In this document: positions 2,895 through 37,651 of the stretch, one piece after another
How the letters are laid out: the number at the start of each line of letters is the position of its first letter
Position numbering within the stretch: the first letter of the stretch is position 1
Assembly (NCBI GenBank): GCA_027295305.1
Contig: JAPULC010000024.1
Location: 248 to 64,247, forward strand
DNA length: 64,000 bases
Source of the DNA: Gammaproteobacteria bacterium
GTDB lineage: Bacteria > Pseudomonadota > Gammaproteobacteria > Pseudomonadales > Azotimanducaceae
Direction: 5' to 3'
The notes under the pieces: model-generated
Databases searched by the model: none
Told to the model about the DNA's origin: nothing
Seen by the model: the letters and a program-made list of their open reading frames with translations, nothing else
Program-made: the position numbers and the translations under genes

Positions 2895-3227
2895 ATGACC
2901 CAGGACCTATCCAACGAGGACTTCGCCAGGCGGATGCGGGAGCAACGTGGAGAGCCGCGACTGATCCGTCTGCCGGCCGTCATGAGGCAGGGGGAACGGC
3001 TCGCCGAGTTCGCCGAGCAGTGGGAGCGCGTGATGATGAGCGCAGGGCTTTGGCGCAAACCCACTTTGGCGAGCATCGAGAAGACTGTGGAGGCCATGCC
3101 CGGGGTACTGTCCGCAGAGGCCACCGAGACGTCACCAGGAGTCGTCGAAGTCAGCGCGATGGTGCGTGGGCCCGTTATCTACTCGAAGACAATCCGCATA
3201 CCCCTATCATCGGTGCCCCTGCCATGA
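2895..3227 (+). CDS. Hypothetical protein, shared N-terminal motif family
   Basis: ATG at 2895 lies just after the upstream stop. N-terminus LSNEDFARRMREQRGEPRLIR. Its stop overlaps the next ATG as ATGA. Confidence 0.55.
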   Translation: MTQDLSNEDFARRMREQRGEPRLIRLPAVMRQGERLAEFAEQWERVMMSAGLWRKPTLASIEKTVEAMPGVLSAEATETSPGVVEVSAMVRGPVIYSKTIRIPLSSVPLP

Positions 3228-6124
3228 CCAAGAATATCCGAATATACGCGCCTGAGGGCATGGATCGCCTGGAACTCGCCCAGCATGTGATGGGGCCTTC
3301 CTTCCTCCTGAAGGCCGAGCGGCTCAAGTACAGCGAGCGGACCTTTCAGCATTACAAGGCGATGCAGCAGTCGGCGGAGCAGTTTGAGCGCGCCTACCGC
3401 AAGCAAATGGCCAGGATTCTTCAGGCGGTTCGGGCCTACGCGGAAGAAGAGATAATAGATAGCAAACTGAAGAAGGCCGAGCGTAGCCCCTACGATAGTA
3501 TCGCAAATCCCGAGCACCTGAAGGCCATCCGCGCGATCGTCACCGACTACCACCTAGCGTTCATCGCGGCCCGGGTCGGTCCCGAGTACGTGTCGGCCGA
3601 GGACATCCAGCGGATCATCGACAGCGGCATCCTGCCGGCCGACCTGCAGCACACCTACGATCCGGCCCTGGGCGGCGAGCCCGCGACCAGCGCGCAGAGC
3701 ATCGCCGACGCCTACAACTACGGCATTTCCATGGGGCGCGACCCCCGCCTGCGCGGCGTCGCCAGCGTCCTGGGCATCGACCCCTGGCGGACCAAGTACG
3801 GCGATCCGACCCTGTCCAGCCAGGAGCAGGCCGCCCGCACCTGGGCGTCCGGCAACGCGGCCAACACCATCACGGGCCTGGGCAACCGGGTGGGGGACGA
3901 CTTCAGCACCCTGGCCGTCGAGGCCGACGCCGAGCTGCGCGCCAAGTACCAGGCCGACGTCCGCCAGGAGCTGGACATGAACATCGAGCGCCAGCAGTCA
4001 TGGCGGAAGCTCGCGAGCGACCTGGGCCACAGGACCGAGGACTGGTCCCGGGACTTCAAGCGCATCGCGGCGACCGAGAAGCAGGCCGCTATGCAGCAGG
4101 GACTCACCGCGGGGCTCATCGAGCGCGAGGGCGACCCCGACGAGATCAACGTGGCAAAGCAACCGTCGCCTGGCGCCTGTCCAGATTGTGTGCGTTTACA
4201 CTACACCGCAGGTGAAGGCTCACCCCTGCGCATCTTCAAGTTATCTGAACTTCAAGCCAATGGAACGAACGTTGGGAAGAAGCAAAATGCATGGCTAGCC
4301 ACAATTGGGCCAATTCATCCGTGGTGTCACCGGCCGGATGCGGTGGTGGAGACTAGGGAGGGTCCGCGCCCGCTAGCCCTCATCCGGCCGGGTGACCGCG
4401 TGCTCACCCACAAGGGGCGATTCCGACCCGTACAGCGCGTCGCGAAGCGCGCCCACCGGGGCGAGCTTGTGGAACTCCTCAGCGGCGACGAGATCTTCGT
4501 AGCGACGCCAGAGCACCCGTACCTCACTCAGCGCGGATGGGTGGCGGCTTCGGATTTGCAACCGGGCGATCATCTCATGCGCGTTTTGCAACGACCCCTT
4601 GAGGATGTAGGCGCGAATGACAATCCAGCCGAGCGCTTCGAGGTAGGCCGACTTCTGGAGATCCTGGGCGATTTTGCGTTCGGACGAGTGCCACGTTGGG
4701 TCCACCTCTACGGCCGCGAAAATCCCCGGCAGCGCGAGGTCGATGTTGTATGGGCCTACCGCCAGCTGAGGCGTCGGATCAAATCCGTGGCGGCGCAAGG
4801 TGCCGAGCACCTGCTGTTCATACTCCGTCAGGTCGCCGGTTTTCTGTCGCGTCTGAGCCGAGCGGATCTTCTGCACGGCTGGGCGCGGCTTGCCACGGAC
4901 TGCGGCATGAGCGTTGTGTACCATCGCCCGGCGGCCCTCAGCATCCAGTTGATCCCAGAGCAAGCGAGTAGCTTCAGCAGGAGTTCGGATAGTGACGCCA
5001 TTCGCCCGCAACTTGGCGTTGATCGTTTGGGCACAAACCCCATATCTATTTCCGAGTTCGGAAGTCGGAGCGCCAGCAATATAGGCAGCGCACATATCTT
5101 CAATCGGGATGGAAGCAGCCCCGCCTTGGCTGATTTTGATGCCCGCGGCGGCGCTGCGTCGACGGACGGTATTCCCGCTGACCCCAAGCCGGGAAGCGAG
5201 TGCGGACACAGTGATTTCTCCGCGCTCCAAGGGGTCGCGGAATTCCTCAATATCGATGGAGTAGACCATGGCGACACGCTATACCATGGTGTTGAAATTA
5301 ATGAAATCCGTTCACATGAACATGATGGGGAGGTGTATTCGCTGAGCGTTGCCGAGGACGAGTCATATATCGTGGATGGCGTCGTGGTGCACAACTGCGC
5401 TTGTGAACTTATCCATGTGCCCAACGGCTGGGGCTTCAACGAAGACGGCGACCTCATGCCGGAAAGCCTGCTGCGCGCCGAGCTGCTCCCGGGCGACCTG
5501 CGCAAAGCCCACCTGACCTGGGGCAGCGTCGTGCCCGAGCGCGGCGTGGCTGTGCGCCTGGGCGACCCGCAGAAGGTGGCCGTGGCTGACGAGGTCATCG
5601 CGCGCACCCCCCCGGAGATTTTCGACAGGCGCGTGGGCATCACCCTGATCTGCGAAGACGAGCCGCGGGTCGAGAATGCGATGAGCGACCACGACCTCGC
5701 CTACTGGACCGGCAACGAAATCCGCGTGTCGGGCAAGGTCACCGCCGAGATGCTCCGGCACGTGCTCGAACATGAGATAGGCCACTCCCTGAACGTGTGG
5801 CTGATGTACTGCTGGGGCGGCGAGCCGAAGGTCATCGCGTGGCATGCGAAGCTATATCAGGTAAGTGAGGGCGAAGGGTTCGTGAGCGCCTACGCGCAGA
5901 CCGCGCCCATCGAGAATGCGGCCGAGCTGACTCGGCTCTATCTGTACGACCGCAAGCTCATCATGATGCAGTTCCCGCGGGCCTTCGCGATGCTGCACAA
6001 AGCCTACAAAGGGATATGGCGAAAGGGACGCAATGACCGACCACTCGAAGAACGACCCGGCGAGCAAGCCAAGCAACGACAAGACGCCATCGACGAGCGC
6101 AAGCGCGGAGGCGCCCGACTTTGA
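3224..6124 (+). CDS. MuF (SPP1 gp7)-like domain protein with C-terminal HExxH metallopeptidase-like module, interrupted by an intein
   Basis: ATG at 3224 in an ATGA overlap (the track start 3020 is rejected). It has a CPDC...HPW|intein|CACEL MuF signature and HEIGH at 5771-5785. The last ~90 nt overlap the better-coding 6033 frame. Confidence 0.8.
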   Translation: MTKNIRIYAPEGMDRLELAQHVMGPSFLLKAERLKYSERTFQHYKAMQQSAEQFERAYRKQMARILQAVRAYAEEEIIDSKLKKAERSPYDSIANPEHLKAIRAIVTDYHLAFIAARVGPEYVSAEDIQRIIDSGILPADLQHTYDPALGGEPATSAQSIADAYNYGISMGRDPRLRGVASVLGIDPWRTKYGDPTLSSQEQAARTWASGNAANTITGLGNRVGDDFSTLAVEADAELRAKYQADVRQELDMNIERQQSWRKLASDLGHRTEDWSRDFKRIAATEKQAAMQQGLTAGLIEREGDPDEINVAKQPSPGACPDCVRLHYTAGEGSPLRIFKLSELQANGTNVGKKQNAWLATIGPIHPWCHRPDAVVETREGPRPLALIRPGDRVLTHKGRFRPVQRVAKRAHRGELVELLSGDEIFVATPEHPYLTQRGWVAASDLQPGDHLMRVLQRPLEDVGANDNPAERFEVGRLLEILGDFAFGRVPRWVHLYGRENPRQREVDVVWAYRQLRRRIKSVAAQGAEHLLFILRQVAGFLSRLSRADLLHGWARLATDCGMSVVYHRPAALSIQLIPEQASSFSRSSDSDAIRPQLGVDRLGTNPISISEFGSRSASNIGSAHIFNRDGSSPALADFDARGGAASTDGIPADPKPGSECGHSDFSALQGVAEFLNIDGVDHGDTLYHGVEINEIRSHEHDGEVYSLSVAEDESYIVDGVVVHNCACELIHVPNGWGFNEDGDLMPESLLRAELLPGDLRKAHLTWGSVVPERGVAVRLGDPQKVAVADEVIARTPPEIFDRRVGITLICEDEPRVENAMSDHDLAYWTGNEIRVSGKVTAEMLRHVLEHEIGHSLNVWLMYCWGGEPKVIAWHAKLYQVSEGEGFVSAYAQTAPIENAAELTRLYLYDRKLIMMQFPRAFAMLHKAYKGIWRKGRNDRPLEERPGEQAKQRQDAIDERKRGGARL
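4325..5395 (+). mobile_element. Class-1 intein (357 codons) inserted in the MuF HPxCxC motif
   Basis: Starts with Cys (CHRPDAVVET), has a TPEH block-B-like motif, and ends VVVHN followed by Cys+1. Removing it restores HPWCAC. Confidence 0.75.
4373..5269 (-). CDS. Homing-endonuclease-like protein (two HTH units plus Vsr/DUF559-like nuclease core) encoded antisense inside the intein
   Basis: 298-aa ORF with ITVSALASRLGVSGNTVRR, TSELGNRYGVCAQTINAKL and VGPYNIDLALPGIFAAVEVDPTWH. It reads as a real protein, whereas the + frame of the same DNA does not. Confidence 0.65.
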   Translation of the reverse strand: MVYSIDIEEFRDPLERGEITVSALASRLGVSGNTVRRRSAAAGIKISQGGAASIPIEDMCAAYIAGAPTSELGNRYGVCAQTINAKLRANGVTIRTPAEATRLLWDQLDAEGRRAMVHNAHAAVRGKPRPAVQKIRSAQTRQKTGDLTEYEQQVLGTLRRHGFDPTPQLAVGPYNIDLALPGIFAAVEVDPTWHSSERKIAQDLQKSAYLEALGWIVIRAYILKGSLQNAHEMIARLQIRSRHPSALSEVRVLWRRYEDLVAAEEFHKLAPVGALRDALYGSESPLVGEHAVTRPDEG

Positions 6125-10696: not shown

Positions 10697-10953
10697 CTGA
10701 GGGATACGTTACACCAGAAGAACGAGAAGCCTATGCCGAGCGCAAGCGAGAGGGGCAACCGCGGCTCCAGCGGTGGTATCCGCTCCTCTCGCTTCTGATG
10801 ACGATTGCCCTGTGTGCTGTGATTTTCTGGCAGAGGTCAATCATCGACCGCAAGGCGTCCCTCCTTGATCGGGCGGGGTGTGCCATTCTTATCCAAGAGC
10901 GTCGCATCAAAGATCTGGAGGCGGTGGTCGAGTGGAGTGGAACCGATGAGTGA
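10693..10953 (+). CDS. Hypothetical single-pass membrane protein
   Basis: ATGA overlap. It has a transmembrane helix (WYPLLSLLMTIALCAVIFW). Confidence 0.55.
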   Translation: MTEGYVTPEEREAYAERKREGQPRLQRWYPLLSLLMTIALCAVIFWQRSIIDRKASLLDRAGCAILIQERRIKDLEAVVEWSGTDE

Positions 10954-11368
10954 GCCGACAAAGCCGGGGCTGTTCCAAGGCACAGGCTGGGCCATGAATG
11001 CGAAAGCCGGCAAGCTCGATCGGCTCAATGCAGCACTGACAGCCGCCGCCGAGGGGCTCTATGCGCTCAATCTGGGTGCGGCCGCCGAAATCCCGATGGG
11101 TGGCGACACGTATCTAATGTGGGCCAAGCACGACGGCAAGTGGGGCTTGTATGTCTACAGCTACAACGAATCACTGCGTAAGGGAAAGGCGCCTATGAAG
11201 CTTGTGCCTATCCTGCAAGCCGAAGCAGACCACAGGATATTGGCTGCGGGGCACCTGAACGCGCTGCTGGAAGCTGTCCGGGTCGCATCGGGCGAGGCGC
11301 TGCGCGGCATCGAAGATGCGATCAGCGCTGCGCAGTCATTTGCGGAAGGGATGGCAAAGGATGGCTGA
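10946..11368 (+). CDS. Hypothetical protein
   Basis: ATG at 10946 (MSEPTKPG) overlaps the upstream gene by 8 nt. Confidence 0.6.
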   Translation: MSEPTKPGLFQGTGWAMNAKAGKLDRLNAALTAAAEGLYALNLGAAAEIPMGGDTYLMWAKHDGKWGLYVYSYNESLRKGKAPMKLVPILQAEADHRILAAGHLNALLEAVRVASGEALRGIEDAISAAQSFAEGMAKDG

Positions 11369-12299: not shown

Positions 12300-12523
12300 G
12301 CGTATTCGAGAGACAGCTGGCAGCATTGACACCGGAGGACCGGCAAGCGGTCGCGGACGGGCTCACGTATCGCGTAGCTCATCCGGGAGGAAGGGTCGAG
12401 TACGCACGCGACCTCCAGCACGCGATCGACATTCGACAGTGCAAGCTCGGAGAGCAGCAGGCGCAAATCACCGCGCTGCCTTGGGAGCGCAAGCCGGCCG
12501 AGGAAGGCGTCCCCAATGGCTGA
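12296..12523 (+). CDS. Hypothetical protein
   Basis: GTG at 12296 in a GTGA overlap with the thyA stop. Confidence 0.5.
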   Translation: MSVFERQLAALTPEDRQAVADGLTYRVAHPGGRVEYARDLQHAIDIRQCKLGEQQAQITALPWERKPAEEGVPNG

Positions 12524-23791: not shown

Positions 23792-23977
23792 ATGGAAATC
23801 GGAAGCGAAGAATGGGTGAGGTCACAGAATCGAGCGCAAGGGCTGTTCCTCTTGCTTGTGTTCCTGGCCGGCCTAGCTGTGCTGTTCACGATGCGGTCCA
23901 TCGTTGACATGAACGACCTGATCGTCGAGCAGCGGCAACGGCTGTCCGACTGCGACTGCATGGAAGGAACCCCCTGA
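23792..23977 (+). CDS. Small membrane protein
   Basis: It has a transmembrane helix (GLFLLLVFLAGLAVLF) and ends in junction motif 1. Confidence 0.5.
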   Translation: MEIGSEEWVRSQNRAQGLFLLLVFLAGLAVLFTMRSIVDMNDLIVEQRQRLSDCDCMEGTP

Positions 23978-24153
23978 TGCCGAGTGACGAACTGAAGCCA
24001 TGCCCCTTCTGCAGGGGCGGCTGGGTCGTAATCGTAGGAACGGACAAGGGTGTGTGGGCTAAATGTTTCGAGTGCGACGCACAGGGGCCCAGACATCCAG
24101 AGGCGGATGCAGCCCTGGAGAGCTGGAACCGCGCGACCAAGGAGACCCCCTGA
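23977..24153 (+). CDS. Lar-like restriction alleviation protein
   Basis: 58 aa. The sequence ELKPCPFCRGG...WAKCFECDAQGP...EADAALESWNR matches the Lar family pattern (CPFCGG...C..C...GP....A...WN). Confidence 0.65.
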   Translation: MPSDELKPCPFCRGGWVVIVGTDKGVWAKCFECDAQGPRHPEADAALESWNRATKETP

Positions 24154-24428
24154 TGTCACGGCACTACGACGCGAGGAGAGTGGTGGACGCGGTCCCGGGG
24201 CGGCTTGGCCCCGCCCACCGCCAGGGCGAGCTCTGGTGGGTGCTGCTGGAGTGCGGCTGCATCTGCTGGCGTGCGTGTAAGCCGGGTCGGGGCCTGAAGT
24301 GCGAGACGCATGAACTCGGGCCCGTCACCCTCACTGGCCTGACGGAGATCGGCAAGCAATGTCCTGCATGTAGCCGCCCGATCCAAGCATGTGAGGACCA
24401 ATGCTGGCTATGCCGGAGGACCCCCTGA
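24153..24428 (+). CDS. Hypothetical Cys-rich protein
   Basis: Bounded by junction motifs. It carries CGCICWRAC...CPAC...CEDQCWLC. Confidence 0.5.
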   Translation: MSRHYDARRVVDAVPGRLGPAHRQGELWWVLLECGCICWRACKPGRGLKCETHELGPVTLTGLTEIGKQCPACSRPIQACEDQCWLCRRTP

Positions 24429-24637
24429 TGCAGATCAAGTTCTGGAAAATCTACGCCAAGATCATGGCGGTGCTGCTCGGCATGGTCGCCTTTGCCGCTG
24501 GCACGAACCTCGCCGCGCATGTGATTGAGCTTGTCACCGGCGTTGGGTCGGGGTGGGTGATGTTGGCGTTCGGAGCCGCCTACATCGTAATCGGCGTTGG
24601 AGTTGCCGCACACCAGGTAACCAAGGAGACCGACTGA
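24428..24637 (+). CDS. Small membrane protein (2 TM)
   Basis: Bounded by junction motifs. It has two hydrophobic helices. Confidence 0.55.
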   Translation: MQIKFWKIYAKIMAVLLGMVAFAAGTNLAAHVIELVTGVGSGWVMLAFGAAYIVIGVGVAAHQVTKETD

Positions 24638-24671
24638 TGCCGATAGCCACCCAGACAGAGAAAGAACCGAC

Positions 24672-25139
24672 ATGCTAATCGACCCAGAGAACCTGAGAGC
24701 ACCAGATCCTGTTCTAGCCGTGATCGCGGGTAGCGGCGCTGGCCCCATACGTTTGGCGGAAGGACAGTACGAGATAGGTCATTTCAGCTTTGACATGTTG
24801 CTCAGCGCGCGCGGTGGAAATCTAGCAGGTGGGGACCTATGGTCGGACCACCCCGAGTTTCCGTGGGGCTACGGCGAAGGCAAGCCCGACTGTTATGGGG
24901 TGTGCGACTCCCCCGTTCAGTTCATGGATGACCACGGCGCCTGGCTCAACGAGACCGACAGGAAGTTCTGCATCTCGTTCACCCCCATTCACAAAGCTGA
25001 GCAAGGGCCCGATGGAGGCTGGCGTTGGCACAAGTGGGGCGCTTACGTAGGGCGCGGGACGCCCACCTACGAATACCTCTACGACGAGCCCGACTTTGAG
25101 ACGGTGTATTGCTTCCACATCTACGAGCGGACCGACTGA
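24672..25139 (+). CDS. Hypothetical protein
   Basis: 155-aa ORF. It is preceded by a 13-codon MP-ORF that starts in junction motif copy d. Confidence 0.6.
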   Translation: MLIDPENLRAPDPVLAVIAGSGAGPIRLAEGQYEIGHFSFDMLLSARGGNLAGGDLWSDHPEFPWGYGEGKPDCYGVCDSPVQFMDDHGAWLNETDRKFCISFTPIHKAEQGPDGGWRWHKWGAYVGRGTPTYEYLYDEPDFETVYCFHIYERTD

Positions 25140-25471
25140 TGCCGATCACATGGTGCAAAGACTGTAGCGAAAGCATTTTCGACTACGATGGCGCGAGGCC
25201 GCACAAGTGCCCGCCGGCGTTCCTCGTTTGGTACGAGGGTCACGGCGATGACCCCGAGGTCGATCACGATGTGGTGCACTCGCACGATGCCGAGTCGGCT
25301 GCCGAGAAGTGGGCCGAGGAGAGCGACGGCCAGGGCGACTACACGATCGTCCAGGGTAGCGACGAAACCGTGAAGGTGCGCCCGCGCGATGGTGGTGCGT
25401 GGGAAACCTGGACGGTGAGTGGCGAGACCGTCGCGCAGTACTCCGCGACGAAGGTCAAGGCGACCCCCTGA
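25139..25471 (+). CDS. Hypothetical protein
   Basis: Bounded by junction motifs, starting MPITWCKDC. Confidence 0.55.
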   Translation: MPITWCKDCSESIFDYDGARPHKCPPAFLVWYEGHGDDPEVDHDVVHSHDAESAAEKWAEESDGQGDYTIVQGSDETVKVRPRDGGAWETWTVSGETVAQYSATKVKATP

Positions 25472-25683
25472 TGCCGGAACGCGGATACACAGTGGCGGAG
25501 CTGTTGGCCATACCAGGTTGCGAAAGCGTGTCCTTGTTCGGCGCAGACGGTTCCGGTGTGAAGGTGACACGGCCCCCGGGGAAGTGGGTGCCGGCGCTGC
25601 GGGAAATCTGTCGTCACGATATCAAGGGGCACTGTGAGGACTGCATGATTCACGGGCCCGACATGGAATGGGAGACCGACTGA
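25471..25683 (+). CDS. Hypothetical protein
   Basis: Bounded by junction motifs. Confidence 0.5.
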   Translation: MPERGYTVAELLAIPGCESVSLFGADGSGVKVTRPPGKWVPALREICRHDIKGHCEDCMIHGPDMEWETD

Positions 25684-25970
25684 TGCCGATAGTACACAAG
25701 CTCAAGACATGGTCAGACGAATGGGACGCGGTCTCACGCCGCGACAAGCGCTTCGAGTTCCGACGCAACGATCGGGACTTCAAGGTAGGGGATGTGCTTC
25801 GGCTCCAGCGGTGGAACCCCGTGCTGGGCGAGTACACAGGTGCGCTCGATATTCTGGTGCCAGTCACCTACGTCCTACACGGAAACCACCATCACGCATT
25901 CGGAGTGCCTGAGGGCTACTGCGTGATGTCGTTGGATTGCAACTTTGAACAGGTCGCGAGGACCGACTGA
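25683..25970 (+). CDS. DUF3850/ASCH-like (PUA-fold) protein
   Basis: The sequence HKLKTWSDEWDAVSRRDKRFEFRRNDRDFKVGDVLRLQ matches the DUF3850 pattern (H.LK....F......K.FE.R.NDRDF.VGD.L.L). Confidence 0.6.
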   Translation: MPIVHKLKTWSDEWDAVSRRDKRFEFRRNDRDFKVGDVLRLQRWNPVLGEYTGALDILVPVTYVLHGNHHHAFGVPEGYCVMSLDCNFEQVARTD

Positions 25971-26128
25971 TGCCGATCGACTTCACCGTTACGCTGGACC
26001 TCATCAAGTACACGTTCACAGTCGAGGAGCTACGGCGGTGCGAGCGGTCAGTCTCTCAGGTCTTGGCTGAGCGTCACGACCGTGCCCTGCTGAGGGTGCT
26101 GTTTCCCCACCCACCGGAGACCGTCTGA
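25970..26128 (+). CDS. Hypothetical small protein (52 aa)
   Basis: Bounded by junction motifs. Translated by hand. Confidence 0.4.
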   Translation: MPIDFTVTLDLIKYTFTVEELRRCERSVSQVLAERHDRALLRVLFPHPPETV

Positions 26129-26376
26129 TGCCGAGAATCAATCCCGACTGGGGCCACATCGAAACGGAAGCCACAGCAGCGCTTGTCCCGCATGGGCGCC
26201 GTGTACCGCTCAGGGAGTGCCCAACCGGACCCTACCAGTTCTCCGGGGGGTTCGCGTGGATGTCGGAGTATGGAGGCGAGTCCTACCTTACCAGTGGGGA
26301 ACGTTGCGTCATTGCCAAGGATACGATGGTGCAACCTCTGGTGGTTGTTGCCCACACAATCGAGGAGACACCCTGA
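26128..26376 (+). CDS. Hypothetical protein
   Basis: Bounded by junction motifs. Confidence 0.5.
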   Translation: MPRINPDWGHIETEATAALVPHGRRVPLRECPTGPYQFSGGFAWMSEYGGESYLTSGERCVIAKDTMVQPLVVVAHTIEETP

Positions 26377-26534
26377 TGCCGAGCACGAAACGCAAGATGC
26401 GGATGCAGTGGATTGGGGACGCGGCCACGTTCGTTGTGTTCGTGATTGTATTTTTCCCGTTCATCATCATGGGCGGGTTCGCGTGGCTGGCGTTTGACCT
26501 CCCGGAGCGACTAGGGCTTTGGAGGGTAGAGTGA
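26376..26534 (+). CDS. Small membrane protein (52 aa)
   Basis: It starts at the last junction motif and has a hydrophobic core (FVVFVIVFFPFIIMGGFAWLAF). Confidence 0.45.
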   Translation: MPSTKRKMRMQWIGDAATFVVFVIVFFPFIIMGGFAWLAFDLPERLGLWRVE

Positions 26535-26539
26535 AGAGG

Positions 26540-27196
26540 ATGCCTGAAGCACCACGCCGCGTCGCCATCTACGTGCGCGTGTCCACACGCGACCAACGCC
26601 TGCTCCAGCAGTTTCGCGAGGTGCGTCGTATGGTCGAGCGCAAGGGCTGGACCATCGTCAAGGTCTACCGCGAGCGTCGTAGCGCCAAGCAGGGTGCCTA
26701 CCGACCCGAGTGGGAGCGCCTACGGAAAGACGCCGCACGTAAGCGCTTCGGGGCCGTCGCTGTCTGGTCAATCGATCGGATGGGCCGTAGCACCCTAGAC
26801 GTGCTCAAGGGCGTAGAGGGGTTCGAGAGGCGCGGCGTCGAGCTGCTGATCGTCAAGCAGAAGGTGGACACCACGTCACCGCTCGGCAAGCTCCTGCTGA
26901 CCATCCTGGCAGCGTTCGCACAGATGGAACGGGAGCTGATCAGTGAGCGCACCAAGGCAGGCATGGCGGCGCGGCGTGCAGCGGGCCTGCCTCTGGGTCG
27001 GGTTGCCGTCCTGGTACCACGCGAGCACATCGATGCGGTTCTTAGTGAGGAGAAGTCAGCGGCCCAGGTGAGCCGCGAGACAGGTATCGGAGTCGGTACC
27101 ATCCGGGCTCGGGTGAGGGCAGCGAAAAGGGAGGGGGGTCACGCCGTGCAAACGTCCGCTGGCACCCGACAGCAGAAAGGGCTCCCCCATGGTTGA
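26540..27196 (+). CDS. Small serine recombinase (resolvase/invertase family) with C-terminal HTH
   Basis: It has VAIYVRVSTRDQ (catalytic Ser), VWSIDRMGRS, LLTILAAFAQMERELISERTKAG, and the HTH AAQVSRETGIGVGTIRARV. An alternative GTG start at 26531 gives a GTGA overlap. Confidence 0.85.
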   Translation: MPEAPRRVAIYVRVSTRDQRLLQQFREVRRMVERKGWTIVKVYRERRSAKQGAYRPEWERLRKDAARKRFGAVAVWSIDRMGRSTLDVLKGVEGFERRGVELLIVKQKVDTTSPLGKLLLTILAAFAQMERELISERTKAGMAARRAAGLPLGRVAVLVPREHIDAVLSEEKSAAQVSRETGIGVGTIRARVRAAKREGGHAVQTSAGTRQQKGLPHG

Positions 27197-27371
27197 GCAA
27201 CCGAACGACCTGTGGACGGTCGGCAGTGACGGTCGAATCGTGGCCATCCCAGGACGCCCCGCCCCAGACTGGCACTACGATTGCGGCTGTTCGGGCACGG
27301 CCATTCAGTTCGTATGTACGGCGGGGTGCTGGCGGGAATACGTGCGACAGCAGAAAGGGCTCGGCAAATGA
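27189..27371 (+). CDS. Hypothetical Cys-containing small protein
   Basis: 60-aa ORF between motif-2 copies a and b. Confidence 0.45.
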   Translation: MVEQPNDLWTVGSDGRIVAIPGRPAPDWHYDCGCSGTAIQFVCTAGCWREYVRQQKGLGK

Positions 27372-27574
27372 GTGCTCACCCCACCAAGCTAGCAAAGACT
27401 ATGTTGATGCAATGTCCGCGCTGCGATGCACCGCCAGGCCAATCGTGCCAAGCGTATTCGGGGTGGCGTGCGGGTCTGCGTGCAGGTGCGAACCGCCTTT
27501 CCTATCAGAACCTCCACCCACACGCCGAACGGTGGAGAGCGTACCTCGACCAGCAAGAAAGGCTCGACGGATGA
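27368..27574 (+). CDS. Zinc-ribbon small protein (CPRC-x3-PGQ-x-C family)
   Basis: ATGA overlap. It carries QCPRCDAPPGQSC...HPHAER and is a paralogue of 18525-18722. Confidence 0.5.
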   Translation: MSAHPTKLAKTMLMQCPRCDAPPGQSCQAYSGWRAGLRAGANRLSYQNLHPHAERWRAYLDQQERLDG

Positions 27575-27927
27575 CTCACCCCATGGAGGATGCGGTAGCG
27601 GCTACTCGCGAACTCAAGCCCGGGCTCGTGCTTACGCGAGCACAGCGTTCGGCACTAAGCGCTCTCGCGTGGGGGCAGTACTACTTCGGTGGCCTGCTAA
27701 CCGGCGGGAACACGCGTCGCGCAGTTGTCCTTGCGCTCTGCAAGAAGGGCCTCGCTGAAAGTCAGGGAATGGTGGAGCAGTGCGACGGCGACGGCTTCAT
27801 CTTGCACGGTCGCCAGATGCGCGAGGCGTTCGGACTCACCAGCGCCGGCCTCGACGAGGCCGTAAGGCTCGATTGCTATTACGCGAAGGAGTTGGTCAAG
27901 CGCGACCAGCAGAAAGGGCTCCAATGA
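27571..27927 (+). CDS. Hypothetical protein, possible winged-helix
   Basis: ATG at 27571 in an ATGA overlap. The VVLALCKKGLAESQG segment is wHTH-like. The 244-aa track ORF upstream of 27571 is a shadow frame. Confidence 0.55.
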   Translation: MTHPMEDAVAATRELKPGLVLTRAQRSALSALAWGQYYFGGLLTGGNTRRAVVLALCKKGLAESQGMVEQCDGDGFILHGRQMREAFGLTSAGLDEAVRLDCYYAKELVKRDQQKGLQ

Positions 27928-28178
27928 AGAAACGTGACGCCAAGCGATACGCCTACCAACTGGCGGCCGAGATCCTCACGCGCAACCAGCAATCGGGCGT
28001 GGTGGCCGAGGACGTGACCGATGTGTCCGTGGGGGGCTACGGGGAGCGAGAGGTAGTGATGGTGGAGGCCGCTATGTCCGAGATCATAGCGGCACTGGAG
28101 GCGCGCGGGGACAGGCTCTACCCGCCGGGGAGCAAAGGCGCTGCGGCGTGTCAGCAGAAAGGGCTCGGTGAAGGATGA
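27924..28178 (+). CDS. Hypothetical protein
   Basis: ATGA overlap, lying between motif-2 copies d and e. Confidence 0.5.
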   Translation: MKKRDAKRYAYQLAAEILTRNQQSGVVAEDVTDVSVGGYGEREVVMVEAAMSEIIAALEARGDRLYPPGSKGAAACQQKGLGEG

Positions 28179-28570
28179 GGTCCGTACTGACAAACCGCGA
28201 TTTGGATGCGATGCGGCACATCGCCGACAGCATTCGCCAATCCGCGCAGGAGACTGGTTACGGGTTTTTCCCAGGGGGTGACCCGCGTGAGTTTTTCCCC
28301 GACGGAGAGTCGTGCAGTAATGAGGAGCTGGAAGCGCATCGGGTAGCTTGTGCAGAGTGGGATGCGGGAACTGGCCAGGACATTGGCGGCCCCTGCACCG
28401 TCGAACACGTCGAGATTGAGAGGAAGGATGGCAGCGTGCTCTCGGGTCCGGCACTGGTCACCCGCGCGCACTATGGCATTGGTACCTACACGATGTCCGA
28501 TCCCGACATCGAGAAGCTGGCCCAGCAGCTTGACGACTGGATGGACGCAGCAGCGCAGGCGGGCATATGA
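28175..28570 (+). CDS. Hypothetical protein
   Basis: 131-aa ORF. Confidence 0.55.
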   Translation: MRSVLTNRDLDAMRHIADSIRQSAQETGYGFFPGGDPREFFPDGESCSNEELEAHRVACAEWDAGTGQDIGGPCTVEHVEIERKDGSVLSGPALVTRAHYGIGTYTMSDPDIEKLAQQLDDWMDAAAQAGI

Positions 28571-28598
28571 CCCGACAGCAAGAAAGGCTCGGTGAAGG

Positions 28599-28835
28599 AT
28601 GAGTGGCGAGCAGGAGGACAATCTAGAGCTCTGCGTGCTGTCGTATGGGCGCGCGGGCTATGACGGGGCGGGTTGGTACTACTGGGACGCTGAGTATCCG
28701 GCAGAGGGTTCGGTGGGTGCGTTTGTGACGCTGGACGAGGCCTGCGACCACGCGGTGGAGGCCGGGTATGTGCGCCCCAAGCCCAGTGCGGACGACCTGA
28801 AACGGGAAGCGGGTGAACATGTATTCGGCGACTGA
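28599..28835 (+). CDS. Hypothetical protein
   Basis: 78-aa ORF preceded by an intergenic motif-2 copy. Confidence 0.5.
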   Translation: MSGEQEDNLELCVLSYGRAGYDGAGWYYWDAEYPAEGSVGAFVTLDEACDHAVEAGYVRPKPSADDLKREAGEHVFGD

Positions 28836-28865
28836 CATCGATCAGCAAAAATGGCTCGGTGAACG

Positions 28866-29117
28866 ATGAGCATGATGGACGTGTACTGTTCCGTTTGCAG
28901 GAATCCGTTCTCGACGGGGTGTATCTGCAGCGTCTTCGTGGCGGGGGGCGAGGCACCAGTCGCTTCCTGTGTGCGGTCCCCGGAGCAGCTTCGTTTGGTC
29001 ATTGAGTATGCGCGGCGTGAATGGCGAGATGACGGGGCTGATGGTGAGTCGGTGCATGCCCTCTGCGATGCATTGGAACTGCGGCTCGACAGTGAGCAGC
29101 AAGAAGGGCTCAAATGA
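28866..29117 (+). CDS. Hypothetical Cys-rich protein
   Basis: 83-aa ORF preceded by an intergenic motif-2 copy. Confidence 0.5.
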   Translation: MSMMDVYCSVCRNPFSTGCICSVFVAGGEAPVASCVRSPEQLRLVIEYARREWRDDGADGESVHALCDALELRLDSEQQEGLK

Positions 29118-29746
29118 GAATCAGAATGGAGATCATCGACCTGGTGCGGGGCCTGCGCGCGGTCGCCCTCGCAACTGGTGGAAAGCAGTTCCCGGACATG
29201 CTCATCGATGTGGTCGATGGTGAGCTGCATTTCGTCGCCACCGACGGCTGTTGGCTCATCGAGTGGCAGCATGATGTCGGTCGCAGTACCGAGGATGCCC
29301 GTGTCGGCGTCTGTGGCCTCTCTCTGGCGGCTGCCATTCCGACGCTCATCCAGTTCGCGGAAGGCCAGGAAACTCAGGGAGACCTGCTGCTGGGCGACGG
29401 AGCGGCGTTCGTGGAGGATGGGGTGAAACCGATCCGCATCGAACATGGCCTGGGCGCCGTGACCATCAACGGCGCGGCCCTGTCCGGGCTGACATTTGCG
29501 GACAAGTATGAGGCGCTGATGCGACCCGCTCGCCATCCCGCGCCCGCGCCGTATTTTGCAGGCACGGCGGGCTATCTGACGAAGGTCGCGGAGGCGTTCA
29601 AGATCGTAGGAGGAAGGGCCGACCCGAATCTGCTGCTCCGTGTTGGCGGAGCCATGGATCCGATCCATGTCACCTGCCCTGACCTCCCCGAGCTGACAGC
29701 GATTCTGATGCCCGTGCGACTATCGGATCGCAGCCCGAAGTCTTGA
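29114..29746 (+). CDS. DnaN (beta sliding clamp)-like protein, truncated two-domain-like form
   Basis: LHFVATDGCWL resembles the DnaN VATDGHRLA motif. GLTFADKYEALMRP resembles G.FPDYRRVLP, and the near-C-terminal ILMPVRL (9 residues before the stop) resembles the terminal MPMRL of DnaN. It is only 210 aa. Confidence 0.6.
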   Translation: MRIRMEIIDLVRGLRAVALATGGKQFPDMLIDVVDGELHFVATDGCWLIEWQHDVGRSTEDARVGVCGLSLAAAIPTLIQFAEGQETQGDLLLGDGAAFVEDGVKPIRIEHGLGAVTINGAALSGLTFADKYEALMRPARHPAPAPYFAGTAGYLTKVAEAFKIVGGRADPNLLLRVGGAMDPIHVTCPDLPELTAILMPVRLSDRSPKS

Positions 29747-30071: not shown

Positions 30072-30268
30072 CGACTCAACTCGAACAGCTTGTGGACCAG
30101 GGCCACACGATGGAAGAGGCCGAACTGGTCGTGCGTCTCACCGCGACCGCATTCGCCGATCGGGCCGCGGCGGTGCGTACGGGCATGTGCGCGTGCGGCG
30201 CCCGCATGGCACGCGTGGGACATGGTCGGATCGAGTGCTTGAGCTGCGACGCGGTGCACGCGGCGTAG
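30068..30268 (+). CDS. Hypothetical small protein
   Basis: 66-aa ORF in an ATGA overlap, carrying CACG...CLSC. Confidence 0.45.
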   Translation: MTTQLEQLVDQGHTMEEAELVVRLTATAFADRAAAVRTGMCACGARMARVGHGRIECLSCDAVHAA

Positions 30269-30502
30269 TCAAGGTACGCGGTACAAAGTCGCGTCGTCTG
30301 TGAACACCATAGTCCTGATTTCCCCAGACTCAAACTTAGCGATGGCGTCGATCGCCAGCTGCATCTTTTCGCGTGACCAGCTCGACGGGATGCGCGCGAC
30401 GAGTTTGTCTGCGCGGATTTCGGTCTCCCCGTCTTCCAGCGGCGGAGCTGCGGCCAGTAGAGGGAGGGCGGGTAGCGACTTCAGGAAGTTCCGGCGATTC
30501 AT
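30269..30502 (-). CDS. Small exported protein with Tat-like signal (77 aa)
   Basis: The real start is MNRRNFLKSLPALPLLAAAPP at 30502; the 127-aa track ORF is an upstream extension. Confidence 0.55.
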   Translation of the reverse strand: MNRRNFLKSLPALPLLAAAPPLEDGETEIRADKLVARIPSSWSREKMQLAIDAIAKFESGEIRTMVFTDDATLYRVP

Positions 30503-30516
30503 GCAAGGAATGTAGC

Positions 30517-30542
30517 GGATATGGCGCCGGTTGAACATATCC
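30517..30542. promoter_or_regulatory. Inverted repeat GGATATG-N12-CATATCC in a divergent gap
   Basis: The 7-bp arms are perfect. The repeat lies between the - gene start (30502) and the 5' end of the + ORF. Confidence 0.4.
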
Positions 30543-30946
30543 ACTATGGGGTGGGTATGGAACACGAAATCACGCGCCATCGCCGGACCGGCGGCTCGGC
30601 CAATCCTGCCATTCGGATCACGGCGAAGCCAAAGGTCGACGGGCATTGCCACGAGTATGAGTTCAACATGCTGCCCATGCGCATCGGCGATGGGACCATG
30701 ACGCCGAAGGTCTTCGCCTGTATCCTATTCCAGGATGGGATACCTGCGGAGGTCGGCATCAACGGCACCACGGAGGAAGCGCTGATCGCCATCCTCATCG
30801 ATCGGCTGGAGCGCTTCAACAAGGGGCCATACGCTTGTCGGCAGAACAGCCTTGCGATCACCAGCCTGGAAACGGCCATGCACTGGCTGGGCGACCGGAC
30901 GGCCGAGCGGTCGGAGCACGGCGTTGAAGGGACCATGGCGCCATGA
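30521..30946 (+). CDS. Conserved phage protein of unknown function
   Basis: The pattern ILFQDGIPAEVGINGTTEEALIAILIDRLERFNKGPYACRQNSLAITSLETAMHWLGDRTAERSEHGVEGT recurs in phages. I cannot name the family with confidence, and the start is uncertain. Confidence 0.6.
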   Translation: MAPVEHIHYGVGMEHEITRHRRTGGSANPAIRITAKPKVDGHCHEYEFNMLPMRIGDGTMTPKVFACILFQDGIPAEVGINGTTEEALIAILIDRLERFNKGPYACRQNSLAITSLETAMHWLGDRTAERSEHGVEGTMAP

Positions 30947-31131: not shown

Positions 31132-31475
31132 CGATCAAGTGCGATGTGATTCTGGATAGCGAGCAGGTCGATGCCTTTCTGACGGAGCATGACCACGAGC
31201 GCGAGTTCGGCCCGGTCGCGGTCGGTGATGATCCCGAGGCCGGCGCGTTGGAGCGCAACGGGCTCACCCACATCCTGCTAGGCAAGAACCGCGGCGGGGT
31301 AGCGACGGTGCTGCTCTGCCACGAGGTGCCATCCCCTCCCGAGAACAAAACCCAATACGAAGTCATCCCCACAAGCCTTGCGCTGCTGGAGCACGTGGTC
31401 GGCGAGATGCGCGCGGCTGTGGGCGAGGATTCCCGCCTGGATGGCGACCCCGCAGTCATCGAGGAAGGCTCGTGA
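31128..31475 (+). CDS. Hypothetical protein
   Basis: 115-aa ORF in an ATGA overlap. Confidence 0.55.
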   Translation: MTIKCDVILDSEQVDAFLTEHDHEREFGPVAVGDDPEAGALERNGLTHILLGKNRGGVATVLLCHEVPSPPENKTQYEVIPTSLALLEHVVGEMRAAVGEDSRLDGDPAVIEEGS

Positions 31476-32059: not shown

Positions 32060-32791
32060 ATGCAGGTCTACAGCGTCGCGGAACTAGTCAAAGCGCGGAA
32101 GCTGGACCGCCGCCGCAAGTTCCAAGGGCTGGACATCTCAGTCGAGACGCAGCGCGGCGCCTACCGTCATTGGCATGACCCGCACACGGGTCGAGACGGC
32201 AAGACCAAGATGCCGTGGGACTACGGATATATCCGTGGCAGCGTGGGCGCCGATGGGGACCATGTCGACGCCTACATCGGGCCAGATCCCAACGCCACGC
32301 ACGCGTATGTGGTCGACCAAATGAGAGCACCTGACTTCCAGATATTTGACGAACAAAAGGTCTTTCTAGGGTTTGAGTCTGCCCAGGATGCGCGCGCAGC
32401 CTATGCGAGTTGCTATGATAAGCCCGGTTTTTTCGGCCGCTTGAAGGCCGTTCCGATGGGGGAGTTCCGCCGCCAAGTCCTGAACACCTCGAAGGACGCC
32501 CCACTGATCAAGGCTGGCGGCGACACGAGTCTGGTCCACGAGATCTTCGAGGATGCGACGCCGGGCTACCCCGTGGTCACCCACGTTTTCACGGGCAAGG
32601 ACCGCGCGGAGGTGCAGGGATACTTCGATGCGCACATGAAGACCGATGCCTTCATGCGGGGCATGGAGAATGCCGGCGAGTGGAACGGGGTGAAGGGCCG
32701 CGCGGTCAAGCGCTGGTCGGCCGCGGGGATGGGTCTACGGAAGGCGGCTAGGAAGCGGCTGGGCTTGCGGCTGGATCTTCCGCGCCTGTGA
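32060..32791 (+). CDS. Hypothetical virion-module protein with pyrophosphatase-like DGDxxD motif
   Basis: 243-aa ORF with GADGDHVDAYIG. It is the first gene after the terminator. Confidence 0.6.
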   Translation: MQVYSVAELVKARKLDRRRKFQGLDISVETQRGAYRHWHDPHTGRDGKTKMPWDYGYIRGSVGADGDHVDAYIGPDPNATHAYVVDQMRAPDFQIFDEQKVFLGFESAQDARAAYASCYDKPGFFGRLKAVPMGEFRRQVLNTSKDAPLIKAGGDTSLVHEIFEDATPGYPVVTHVFTGKDRAEVQGYFDAHMKTDAFMRGMENAGEWNGVKGRAVKRWSAAGMGLRKAARKRLGLRLDLPRL

Positions 32792-33248
32792 GGAATCCGA
32801 ACACCTGACGCTTTGCTTCGGCAGCACGCGTCGCTTCTTCGATGGTATCGAAGGTTCCGACATGATGAAGCGTTCCTTGATATCCGACTCGGGACCGGTA
32901 TTTTCCCGATGGCCGAAGTGAAACGCCGCGCACGCCCGTAAAGGAGTTTTTGTTAGCCCCGCGCCTGTTCTCGCTATTGCCTCTGCTATTGGTGATTCGC
33001 AGATTGCTGCGCCTGCAGTCCAGTTTATCTCCACTGACATGATCGACCATCTTGCCCATCGGGCTCCCCATGATCTCGCGGTGCAATAACAGAGTTTCGC
33101 TGCCCGATCGCCTTTCGGCATATCCCTTCGAGTGAAGGCGCCAATGGGCATTTCCAAGGTGATCGCTCTCACCAAGATACGCGTCTTGGTCATCGACCGT
33201 TGCCTTCGCGACAACGACCCCGTGTTTCCAGACATCGATTTCAACCAT
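32748..33248 (-). CDS. HNH homing endonuclease with AP2-like DNA-binding domain
   Basis: It has LLLHREIMG...VDHVSGDKLDCRRSNLR...N (HNH) followed by GVRGVSLRPSGKYRSRVGYQGTLHHVGTFDTIEEA (AP2-like). Confidence 0.8.
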   Translation of the reverse strand: MVEIDVWKHGVVVAKATVDDQDAYLGESDHLGNAHWRLHSKGYAERRSGSETLLLHREIMGSPMGKMVDHVSGDKLDCRRSNLRITNSRGNSENRRGANKNSFTGVRGVSLRPSGKYRSRVGYQGTLHHVGTFDTIEEATRAAEAKRQVFGFLTGAEDPAASPAAS

Positions 33249-33645: not shown

Positions 33646-34395
33646 ATGTTGCAACACGCACCTACCGCCCGTCCGACCGACCCCTCGGCCATTTTCCAGT
33701 TTGATATGGAGATGGAGTCGATGGAGAAGTCCCGGGTCGACGGGCGCGATGGTCGGTTCATCGGCGGATACATCTCCACCGACCACATGGACCGTGCGGG
33801 CGAGACGCTGATCCAAGATGGGCTGGATTTCGAGCCCTTCCTGAAGAAAGGGTGGTTCAACGATAACCATGACGGCGCGGGCGATTCGCTCGTGGGCTAT
33901 CCGACCATGGTCCGCTTGGACAACCTCGCGAAGGGTCATAAAGGATGGTACGTCGAGGGCGAACTGCTCCCCGACGGCGCCAACCCGCGGGCCGATTCGC
34001 TCTGGAAGATCGCGCAGGGCCTGCACAAGGGCGCCAGCGGCCGCAAGCTCGGGTTCTCCGTTGAGGGCAGCATCCTCAAGCGCGACGCGAAGGATTCCAA
34101 GATCGTGCGTAAGGCGGAGGTCCGCGAGGTCGCCATAACTAGGTGTCCTGTGAACACGCAGACGAGCCTGGATGTCCTCGCGAAGTCGCTGGCCGTGGGC
34201 ATCCCCGCGGGCGAGCCCGGGAGCGCGGAGCCTCTGCAGACCGAAGCGCTCGAAGGCGTCGGCACCAAAAAGAAGAAGAAAAAGAAGCTCACCAAGGGGG
34301 CGGCTGTCGAGCTGATCCTCGCGATTCGACCTGGATTCAGCCGCGCACTCGCGGCGCAGATTGTGGACTACACGGCGCGGCATCACGCCGCTTAG
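33646..34395 (+). CDS. Prohead serine protease (HK97 gp4/S78-like)
   Basis: It has FIGGYISTDHMDRAGETL...NDNHD...VGYP...GWYVEGEL...GFSVEGS and a Lys-rich C-terminus. The start is 33646 or ATG 33706. Confidence 0.72.
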   Translation: MLQHAPTARPTDPSAIFQFDMEMESMEKSRVDGRDGRFIGGYISTDHMDRAGETLIQDGLDFEPFLKKGWFNDNHDGAGDSLVGYPTMVRLDNLAKGHKGWYVEGELLPDGANPRADSLWKIAQGLHKGASGRKLGFSVEGSILKRDAKDSKIVRKAEVREVAITRCPVNTQTSLDVLAKSLAVGIPAGEPGSAEPLQTEALEGVGTKKKKKKKLTKGAAVELILAIRPGFSRALAAQIVDYTARHHAA

Positions 34396-36990: not shown

Positions 36991-37012
36991 TATATCAACG
37001 AAAGGCTCAGTC

Positions 37013-37651
37013 ATGAAGAACGTTCAGAACAAAGCACTCGCGAACACAGTCCTCAGCATAGGAGGCGCCTCCTACACAGGCGACCATGGCGGTGTTTTCG
37101 CGATGGATGGTGCGCACGCGGATATGCTGCTTGCGACTCCAGGGTGGTCGAACAGCGCGCGGGGACCCGAGGAGGCGCCCGCGGCATTCGATCCCGTTGC
37201 GGCCATGGCGGGTGGGGCCGATGCCGGTGAACTGCAAGCTGTGAAGGCACAGCTACAGCAAGCACTGGGCGCCGCGGATGCTCTCCGGACGAAGCTGCGA
37301 ACCTCCGAATCCCTACGGGCGGATCTCCAGCTGGCCGTGAAGAGCAGAGATGCGGAGATCGATCAGCTGAAGGCCGCGGCGGCCGACGCGGATGCTCCTG
37401 CGGACCCTGTGGCACCCGCGAGCGCTCCGGTACCTCCCGCACCGGGCGCAACGTCCGCGCCTGCGACGCCTACGGCTGGCGACGGGAGTGATGAGGCGGC
37501 CGACGATGAGGGTCCGCAGCTCGACGGGATGGATAAGAAGCAGCTCCTGGCAGCCGCGGAAAAGTGGGAAGTCGAGTTGACGGCGCCCCAGAAGAAGCTC
37601 GGCGCTGACAAGCTGCGTCCGATCTTGGACAAGGCGATCTACGGCGACTGA
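37013..37651 (+). CDS. Ala/Pro-rich coiled-coil protein with C-terminal HeH/Rho_N-like motif
   Basis: It has a coiled-coil mid region, an APAPAP linker, and the C-terminus MDKKQLLAAAEKWEVELTAPQKKLGADKLRPILDKAI. Confidence 0.55.
   Translation: MKNVQNKALANTVLSIGGASYTGDHGGVFAMDGAHADMLLATPGWSNSARGPEEAPAAFDPVAAMAGGADAGELQAVKAQLQQALGAADALRTKLRTSESLRADLQLAVKSRDAEIDQLKAAAADADAPADPVAPASAPVPPAPGATSAPATPTAGDGSDEAADDEGPQLDGMDKKQLLAAAEKWEVELTAPQKKLGADKLRPILDKAIYGD

Follow-up and report, generated by a model that had tools for sequence, protein, structure and literature searches.

A repeated gene-junction element in phage accessory-gene arrays, proposed to combine a translation-initiation region with a recombination linker

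Results

An array of repeated gene junctions

We analysed a 64,000-nucleotide stretch of DNA (hereafter the window; contig JAPULC010000024.1 of assembly GCA_027295305.1, positions 248 to 64,247 of the forward strand) and, within it, a short element that recurs at the junctions between consecutive genes. Its consensus is CAGC-ARRAARGG-CTCGA followed, after a few bases, by ATGA, giving a unit of about 17–24 nucleotides. An original prediction, made from the letters of the window, had placed eight copies of this element (family 2) directly downstream of an array of a different junction element (family 1), and the coordinates and sequences that it gave for them are correct. The string CAGCARRAARGGCTC has seven exact matches, all on the plus strand (at 27170, 27348, 27551, 27907, 28152, 28576 and 29097), where dinucleotide shuffles give an expectation of 0.01 and none of 100 shuffles reached seven. 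The eighth copy, at 28843, reads CAGCAAAAATGGCTC and has one mismatch. Allowing up to two mismatches across the whole 64 kb adds a single match, an unrelated minus-strand site at 33832. A start codon lies 2–8 nucleotides after GGCTC in all eight copies, as ATGA in seven of the eight and as ATGG in copy 1. The junctions are as follows.

27170–27196, plus strand: copy 1; CAGCAGAAAGGGCTC, 4 nucleotides, ATG (27189); the upstream gene stops at TGA 27194–96
27348–27371, plus strand: copy 2; CAGCAGAAAGGGCTC, 5 nucleotides, ATGA
27551–27574, plus strand: copy 3; CAGCAAGAAAGGCTC, 5 nucleotides, ATGA; AGAAAGG is retained with a 1-nucleotide shift and the peptide reads QQERL
27907–27927, plus strand: copy 4; CAGCAGAAAGGGCTC, 2 nucleotides, ATGA
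28152–28178, plus strand: copy 5; CAGCAGAAAGGGCTC, GGTGAAGG, ATGA
28576–28602, plus strand: copy 6, non-coding; CAGCAAGAAAGGCTC, GGTGAAGG, ATGA; the upstream gene stops at 28568–70
28843–28869, plus strand: copy 7, non-coding and with one mismatch; CAGCAAAAATGGCTC, GGTGAACG, ATGA; the upstream gene stops at 28833–35
29097–29117, plus strand: copy 8; CAGCAAGAAGGGCTC, 2 nucleotides, ATGA; the right edge of the variable block

The C-termini expected from the coding copies (..QQKGLPHG, ..QQKGLGK, ..QQERLDG, ..QQKGLQ, ..QQKGLGEG and ..QQEGLK) were confirmed, as was the non-coding status of the copies at 28576 and 28843. The array lies among the following features.

23977–26540, plus strand: family-1 array (GGAGACCSMCTGATGCCGA junctions), directly upstream of the recombinase gene and in the same order in all relatives
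26540–27196, plus strand: small serine recombinase (resolvase/invertase type, 218 amino acids; PF00239, E=2e-38; phrog_125, DNA invertase)
27189–29117, plus strand: seven single-gene cassettes (27189–27371, 27368–27574, 27571–27927, 27924–28178, 28175–28570, 28599–28835 and 28866–29117)
29114–29746, plus strand: conserved gene of 210 amino acids to the right of the array, a synteny anchor with the related contigs L048, L049 and L050

The recombinase gene thus sits between the two arrays, and its last codons are family-2 copy 1. The seven cassettes are mutually unrelated and are missing from the closest relatives of the window, whose homology to it picks up again at 29113. Only one of the seven (27368–27574, a phage zinc finger) has a Pfam match.

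Related phages carry the same arrays

The window represents nearly the entire genome of a phage, deposited as a contig of a 'Gammaproteobacteria' metagenome-assembled genome (MAG). It is a myovirus genome; the products encoded include a major head protein, tail sheath and baseplate proteins, along with thymidylate synthase and a MazG-like enzyme. A close relative was absent among 50,697 phage records (megablast, 20 kb query). In IMG/VR, exact 15–17-mers of both families returned lone chance-level matches and zero arrays, and protein-guided scans with the recombinase or the 210-amino-acid gene returned distant resolvases or nothing. Related contigs were instead taken from Logan, ENA, JGI and GTDB assemblies, and were recovered by three routes: the 210-amino-acid gene, a metagenome scan with the motif, and the recombinase. 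The relatives (L048, L049, L137, L159, L206, L208, L210–L212, L213–L216 and L218) all have arrays of the same element, the biggest of which (L208) holds about 20 copies in 7 kb. L159 has the same sequence as the corresponding part of L215, and L218, a Planctomycetota MAG contig, is the one close relative found when genome contigs were scanned with the recombinase. Logan, ENA and JGI contigs of the lineage comprise at least 40 recombinase clusters. We collected 100 distinct family-2 copies from 10 contigs of these related uncultivated myoviruses. Each claim of the original prediction holds on this set, which is some 12 times larger than the one from which they were made. The motif is not scattered: in the window it occurs at junctions only, and every related contig that we recovered has it in its homologous arrays. 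It was not found in the published literature searched.

In all contigs that have the recombinase, family 1 is on its upstream side and family 2 on its downstream side, and the abrupt switch from one to the other that had been noted in the window recurs in all relatives. In L137 this transition falls in a different gene rather than in the recombinase. Recombinase homologues of 48–93% identity nearly all end in a motif-encoded tail; more distant ones do not. As a negative control, 81 loci with unrelated resolvases (1.07 Mb) were found to hold no copies, so that the motif is not general to resolvase loci, a result that is uninformative on the recombinase of this lineage itself.

Conservation across all relatives is at least as strong for the family-1 junction, [R]GGAGACCGACTG ATG CCGA, as it is for family 2, and the block upstream of the recombinase is always made of this family. 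The junction sets both how the upstream protein ends (..ETD or ..ETP) and how the downstream one begins (M-P-). Family-1 arrays span 23977–26540 in the window, 4098–10001 in L206, 995–10001 in L208, 2680–5049 in L213, 4974–10001 in L216 and 114–2892 in L218.

Anatomy of the element

Across the 100 copies the conserved block is CAGCARRAARGGCTCGA, which covers positions −10 to +6 around GGCTC and is sharply bounded; conservation peaks again at the start codon, and there is otherwise nothing further out. The start codon lies 5 nucleotides past GGCTC in 53 copies and 2, 4 or 8 nucleotides past it in 34. It is found within 9 nucleotides in 95 of the 100 (mode 5 nucleotides) and is ATG in 79. In most copies the stop codon of the upstream gene overlaps the downstream start as ATGA or GTGA. 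The two main variants, CAGC-AGAAAGG-GCTC and CAGCA-AGAAAGG-CTC, both contain the heptamer AGAAAGG, displaced by one base in the second. The description of a Shine-Dalgarno-like purine core with additional conservation around it is borne out, CAGC and GGCTCGA being conserved as well.

Signs of RNA structure, of symmetry and of transcription signals were all lacking. RNAalifold on 40 copies gave a 3-bp hairpin (−1.27 kcal/mol) with zero covariation, and the window returned zero Rfam matches at gathering score and zero tRNAs. All copies are direct repeats in which the only inverted repeat is the 3-bp AGC/GCT, and the motif has neither the dyad symmetry of res, hix or gix sites nor the inverted-repeat architecture of attC. 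Sigma-70-like promoters and terminators are not in excess in the arrays, where their counts equal those of shuffled sequences.

A conserved block of about 20 bp that abuts each ATG could in principle be a promoter for a phage-specific polymerase or sigma factor, producing short-leader or leaderless transcripts, and in L214 a sigma-70 region-4 protein does follow the array. Both the density of the copies (one per 130–700 bp) and their coding location and GC-rich composition are unlike known promoters, and a phage RNA polymerase was not recognised (PHROGs and Pfam, about 40 window proteins). We regard a promoter as highly improbable, and give no greater weight to the motif being a leftover of tandem gene duplication, an origin that is excluded by the mutually unrelated cassette proteins. 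Both ideas can be considered effectively excluded.

Two further observations concern the motif itself. Copies that lie within genes, with no start following, occur at 1196–1212 in L210 and at 12783–12798 in L215 (the same sequence as in L159), and one intragenic copy is followed by its own complement (GGGCTCGACGACGAGCCC). These may be relics of two cassettes that fused after loss of a start codon. In addition, CAGCAG, which is contained in the commonest variant and always in one orientation, is the site of the type III restriction enzyme EcoP15I. This match is probably coincidental; the variants CAGCAA and CAGCGA break the site.

The constraint acts on nucleotides

The original prediction held that selection acts on the nucleotide sequence and not on the encoded peptide, and the larger set upholds this view. 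We picked tails by peptide alone, which yielded 74 of 90 array genes, and found hardly any variation among their codons, which are ones that this genome uses rarely: AAA for Lys (40/40; genome share 14%), GAA for Glu (28/28; 26%), GGG for Gly (54/55; 17%), AGG for Arg (18/18; 5%) and CTC for Leu (74/74; 30%). The positions of the tail that do vary are first and second codon positions, where a change alters the residue (K/E/Q, G/R, Q/R). Ten genes carry their own stop just ahead of a non-coding copy, and in three or four single-base indel variants, as in the L218 recombinase, the same bases are read in a different frame. Protein families B and C are found both with and without the tail, and homologues of the window gene 28175–28570 occur in unrelated temperate phages at ordinary junctions from which the motif is absent.

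The same frame is nonetheless read in about 89 of the 100 copies, giving tails of the form Q-[QR]-[KEQ]-[GR]-L, as would be expected of a C-terminal peptide tag under selection, for example a signal for degradation, targeting or partner binding. The observations above run counter to such a tag: rare codons are fixed at synonymous sites whereas sites that change the amino acid vary, genes stop ahead of non-coding copies, other frames are used, and homologous proteins exist with and without the tail. The frame bias has another cause, because only the reading CAG CAG AAA GGG CTC terminates at the TGA of the unit formed by motif, spacer and ATGA. The peptide-tag idea is rejected on the codon evidence and is now scarcely credible; like the promoter and duplication ideas, it is effectively excluded. 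Taken together, these data make a solid case that the constraint acts on nucleotides. The spacing to ATGA as the cause of the single frame, and the role at recombination joints described below, had been missed by the earlier analysis.

A predicted ribosome-binding and re-initiation site

The core AGAAAGG(G) is perfectly complementary to CCUUUCU-3′, a possible end of the host 16S rRNA tail. The predicted duplex with GAUCACCUCCUUUCU has an energy of −10 kcal/mol compared with −5.3 kcal/mol for a UUA-type tail, and it reaches −15 kcal/mol in copies that also carry GGTGA. Tails ending in UUUCU are common among 16S rRNAs and their terminal bases are used in Shine-Dalgarno pairing (PMC6288834). The core has a canonical aligned spacing, lying 8–9 nucleotides ahead of the start codon, and GAAAGG or GAAAGGCTC is used at that distance by other genes of the phage too, such as the gene at 37013.

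We therefore best read the element, on the strength of this complementarity and spacing, as the predicted ribosome-binding and re-initiation site of a long polycistronic unit. At the mRNA level it would form the translation-initiation region of the downstream gene, with AGAAAGG(G) as the Shine-Dalgarno sequence, and ribosomes that terminate at the stop overlapping the next start (ATGA) would then re-initiate. The in-frame TGA would force the CAG CAG AAA GGG CTC reading, such that most array proteins would gain a presumably functionless tail of the ..QQKGL type. Overall, the evidence for a translational role is good but indirect, and Shine-Dalgarno function and coupling are what it suggests. 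This reading gains if the host 16S tail ends in CCUUUCU and weakens if it is of the CCUCCUUA type.

Two sites in the window touch on the distribution of such sequences. The structural-region gene 37013–37651 is preceded by GAAAGGCTC, 5 nucleotides and ATG (window 36996–37015), and the gene at 31472 is preceded by GAAGGCTCGTGA (window 31460–31474), so ribosome sites of the GGCTC type occasionally lie outside the array too.

A site within the mRNA could alternatively serve for processing, with an endoribonuclease cutting the polycistronic message at the junctions and so timing or inactivating expression, in the way that T4 RegB cuts GGAG in early ribosome-binding sites. The presence of the element at every junction in one orientation, its purine-rich unpaired core and the use of two families for two gene blocks would all suit this idea. 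No nuclease candidate was found, however, and neither the fixed spacing to the start codon nor the breakpoints in the DNA would be explained. We consider processing to have only a small chance of being the explanation.

Recombination breakpoints fall at the motif

Comparison of related contigs, for which the gene calls of the sequence collection were used, places recombination breakpoints at the motif. Between the same flanks there are seven cassettes in the window, three in L048 and one in L049. The two extra cassettes of L048 relative to L049 are bounded by motif copies, and the two contigs switch from 89% identity on the left of the motif to 100% identity over 981 bp on its right. Similarly, L210 has one more cassette, of 224 bp, than L211 and L212 (three independent assemblies), and the breakpoints of this indel are inside an identical 16-mer. 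A cassette with 81% identity between L213 and L214 (K) starts and ends exactly at motifs in both; the order is cassette D then K in L213 and K then D in L214, and in L213 another cassette (B) lies upstream of the recombinase. The end points of indels and replacements between close relatives therefore fall in the repeats in each of these three comparisons (L048/L049, L210/L211/L212 and cassette K). Between more distant phages, homology of the recombinase gene stops 0–13 nucleotides from the motif in most pairs. Logan assembly presumably uses a k-mer of 31, longer than the repeats, and on that assumption assembly chimeras are unlikely.

Within single genomes, L216 and L218 have dispersed duplicates bounded by family-2 motifs, with two or three copies per array. 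Motif copies are more similar within a genome than between genomes (0.727 versus 0.665; 0/2000 permutations), as is expected from concerted evolution. The duplicated cassettes lie at 10813–10970, 12339–12496 and 13349–13506 in L216 and at 4162–4291 and 5068–5197 in L218, with identities of 99% and 68%.

At the DNA level, the identical 16–19 bp patches present at every junction would act as linkers. Recombination between copies, either within a genome or between co-infecting relatives, would delete, insert, duplicate or swap single-gene cassettes, and no exchange would disturb the frame, stop codon or ribosome site. Because the crossover point is not resolvable within 16–19 bp of identity, homologous and site-specific exchange are inseparable by sequence alone; we infer that the exchange is homologous. 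The conservation of the flanks CAGC and CTCGA may then be maintained by concerted evolution or by selection for exchangeability.

The alternative is an integron-like cassette system in which the adjacent serine recombinase would use the motif as its crossover site. The recombinase heads the family-2 array in every relative found and has the first copy in its own 3′ end, and both the cassette indels and the dispersed duplicates are bounded by the motif. Part of this association must be ascertainment, since relatives were found via the recombinase, and at the L137 transition another gene takes its place. The symmetry typical of res, hix and gix is missing, as noted above, and there would be two unrelated motif families for one recombinase. 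Moreover, the constant distance to ATG and the complementarity to rRNA speak for translation, and the 81 control resolvase loci hold no motif, a control that is silent on this lineage's own enzyme. In integrons, the attC sites on which a tyrosine integrase acts are imperfect inverted repeats, which fold when the DNA is single-stranded. The arrays resemble integrons in their promoterless single-gene cassettes of one orientation, their repeated site and their adjacent recombinase gene, but the motif has no such inverted repeat and the neighbouring enzyme is a small serine recombinase. We judge it very unlikely that the motif is the recombinase's crossover site.

A broader form of the same idea, a 'phage integron', would make both junction families the recombination sites of a dedicated serine-recombinase cassette-exchange system. 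The border recombinase, or another factor that recognises CAGC..CTCGA, would excise and insert single-gene cassettes at sites built into ribosome-binding sites, such that each insertion would be expressed at once. The chance that this is correct is slim; if it were, many of the cassettes may be counter-defence genes.

Comparison with known repeated elements

One of the two closest parallels is the start-associated sequence (SAS) of cluster K mycobacteriophages, a 13-bp repeat with consensus 5′-GGGATAGGAGCCC that is present in 11–19 copies per genome (Pope et al. 2011, PMC3203893). It lies 3–7 bp before start codons, mostly ATG, and is absent from other phages and from the host (PMC3203893). 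Both SAS and the element described here are short asymmetric repeats, in nearly all cases in one orientation, that sit just before the starts of non-structural genes of different families, and both combine a Shine-Dalgarno core with conserved positions that are unable to pair with rRNA. SAS differs in its unrelated sequence and in its host and phage type. It is also mostly intergenic, whereas the present element normally makes up the last 5–9 codons of the upstream gene and is tied to the ATGA overlap. Our element comes in two families in adjacent blocks and in much denser arrays, and it is not accompanied by inverted repeats like those of the extended SAS (ESAS). Recombination joints have not been reported at SAS. 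The element is thus of the same kind as SAS but not of the same family.

Conserved positions outside the Shine-Dalgarno core raise the possibility of an operator, in which the 17-mer would be bound by a trans-acting factor of phage or host and recombination would be a by-product. The factor could be an RNA-binding translational repressor or activator that governs the whole array at once, for which the T4 translational repressor RegA is a model, or a DNA-binding repressor acting at stoperator-like sites. Stoperators of cluster A mycobacteriophages are asymmetric 13–14 bp sites that occur in many copies across these temperate genomes and bind the immunity repressor. They share with the present element a multi-copy asymmetric site in one orientation relative to transcription, near the starts or stops of genes, but they are repressor-bound, whereas the ATG spacing and rRNA complementarity here point to translation. 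Several features would fit an operator: the conservation extends to CAGC and CTCGA, all copies are at gene starts in a single orientation, each genome has its own flavour of the motif, and two families mark two gene blocks as two regulons would. The authors of the SAS study raise the same possibility for SAS (PMC3203893). Conversely, a candidate binding protein was not identified, the site is without symmetry, and what the shifted variants preserve is AGAAAGG, not a fixed register, a pattern that suits rRNA pairing better than a protein site. An operator would also, by itself, leave the breakpoints in the motif unexplained. It is plausible that a trans-acting factor binding the 17-mer accounts for the flanks, but as an explanation of the element as a whole we think an operator unlikely, if worth keeping in mind.

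The promoter-early stem-loop (PeSL) elements of T4-type phages offer the second parallel. They are AT-rich intergenic sequences of about 100 bp that contain a sigma-70 promoter, a terminator stem-loop and a Shine-Dalgarno sequence (Arbiol et al. 2010, PMC2839356; PMC4122927). Indels and replacements between close relatives end in these repeats, homologous recombination between neighbouring copies has been proposed, and mini-circles have been shown by experiment (PMC2839356; PMC4122927). In both systems, conserved regulatory junctions flank small ORFan genes in hyperplastic regions and would shuffle self-sufficient cassettes. The present element, by comparison, is 17–24 nucleotides long and GC-rich, lacks a promoter or stem-loop, lies in coding sequence, and would preserve the translational rather than the transcriptional autonomy of the cassettes. 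Such behaviour has been demonstrated for PeSL, whereas for our element it is read from sequence comparison. It works like SAS and PeSL at once and is a member of neither, because sequence and host differ, promoter and stem-loop are absent, the element is coding with an obligatory frame, and there are two adjacent families.

Modular theory (Susskind and Botstein; Clark et al.) envisaged homologous recombination at boundary sequences that are short and conserved, although such linkers are usually not found at mosaic boundaries (PMC3029335). The arrays display that very arrangement of short conserved sequences between modules and, unlike the usual case, do so at essentially every block junction, at single-gene resolution and with in-frame compatibility.

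Host assignment and neighbouring genes

The related contigs are binned as Planctomycetota or Deltaproteobacteria and the window contig as Gammaproteobacteria. The last assignment is doubtful, because a 16S tail ending in UUUCU suits the AGAAAGG ribosome sites better than does the UUA tail that Beta- and Gammaproteobacteria typically have.

Likely counter-defence or accessory genes lie in or near the arrays, at 23977–24153, 25683–25970 and 30521–30946 of the window. The set comprises a Lar-like restriction-alleviation protein (PF14354, E=3.8e-10), a DUF3850 protein and an Acb2/Tad1-hairpin-like protein, the last with a match of 24.8 bits that is under the Pfam cut-off of 27; its L048 orthologue was flagged too. 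Elsewhere in the window, an open reading frame (ORF) of 1034 amino acids at 3020–6124 contains an intein (Hint/intein splicing domains, residues ~434–792) inside a protein without an identified function. A segment of about 270 bp (30268–30536) is specific to the window and missing from L048, whose flanking homology is contiguous; it overlaps a minus-strand ORF at 30269–30652 (127 amino acids). A second minus-strand ORF, at 32748–33248, lies between plus-strand blocks. Its counterpart in L048 (4849–5175) has a weak HNH_3 match, and the ORF may thus be a homing endonuclease.

Discussion

The element is a nucleotide-constrained repeat, set at a characteristic distance from start codons, at which recombination breakpoints lie. 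We propose that it is probably a standardised gene junction, in which a translation-initiation region and a recombination linker are combined across a polycistronic array of accessory genes. Several points weigh against this proposal. Pairing with rRNA covers only 7–8 of the roughly 17 conserved bases, and a ribosome site leaves CAGC and CTCGA without a role. The crossover is pinned inside the motif by just two recent indels and one identity switch, while older events show only that homology ends at gene junctions. At 16–19 bp, the patches offer little length for homologous recombination, and the same PHROGs and Pfam searches of about 40 window proteins recognised no phage recombinase besides the serine recombinase. 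Finally, the genome-specific motif variants could equally reflect co-evolution with a trans-acting factor, and the flanks of the motif may point to a binding factor that is not yet recognised.

The arrays also show that a regulatory or recombinational DNA signal can impose a common and apparently meaningless C-terminal tail on most of the proteins of a locus, which calls for caution in annotation and in the motif-based clustering of proteins from shared tails.

The origin of mosaic joints in phage genomes has long been disputed, between homologous exchange at short linkers and random illegitimate recombination followed by selection. In the lineage described here, linkers are found at essentially every junction of two gene blocks, recent breakpoints lie inside the linker, and the linker is built so that any exchange would preserve the frame, the stop codon and the ribosome site. 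It would thus provide a natural setting in which linker-guided gene shuffling can be tested, in those accessory regions of fast turnover where phages gather counter-defence genes, such as the Lar-like and Acb2/Tad1-like genes found here.

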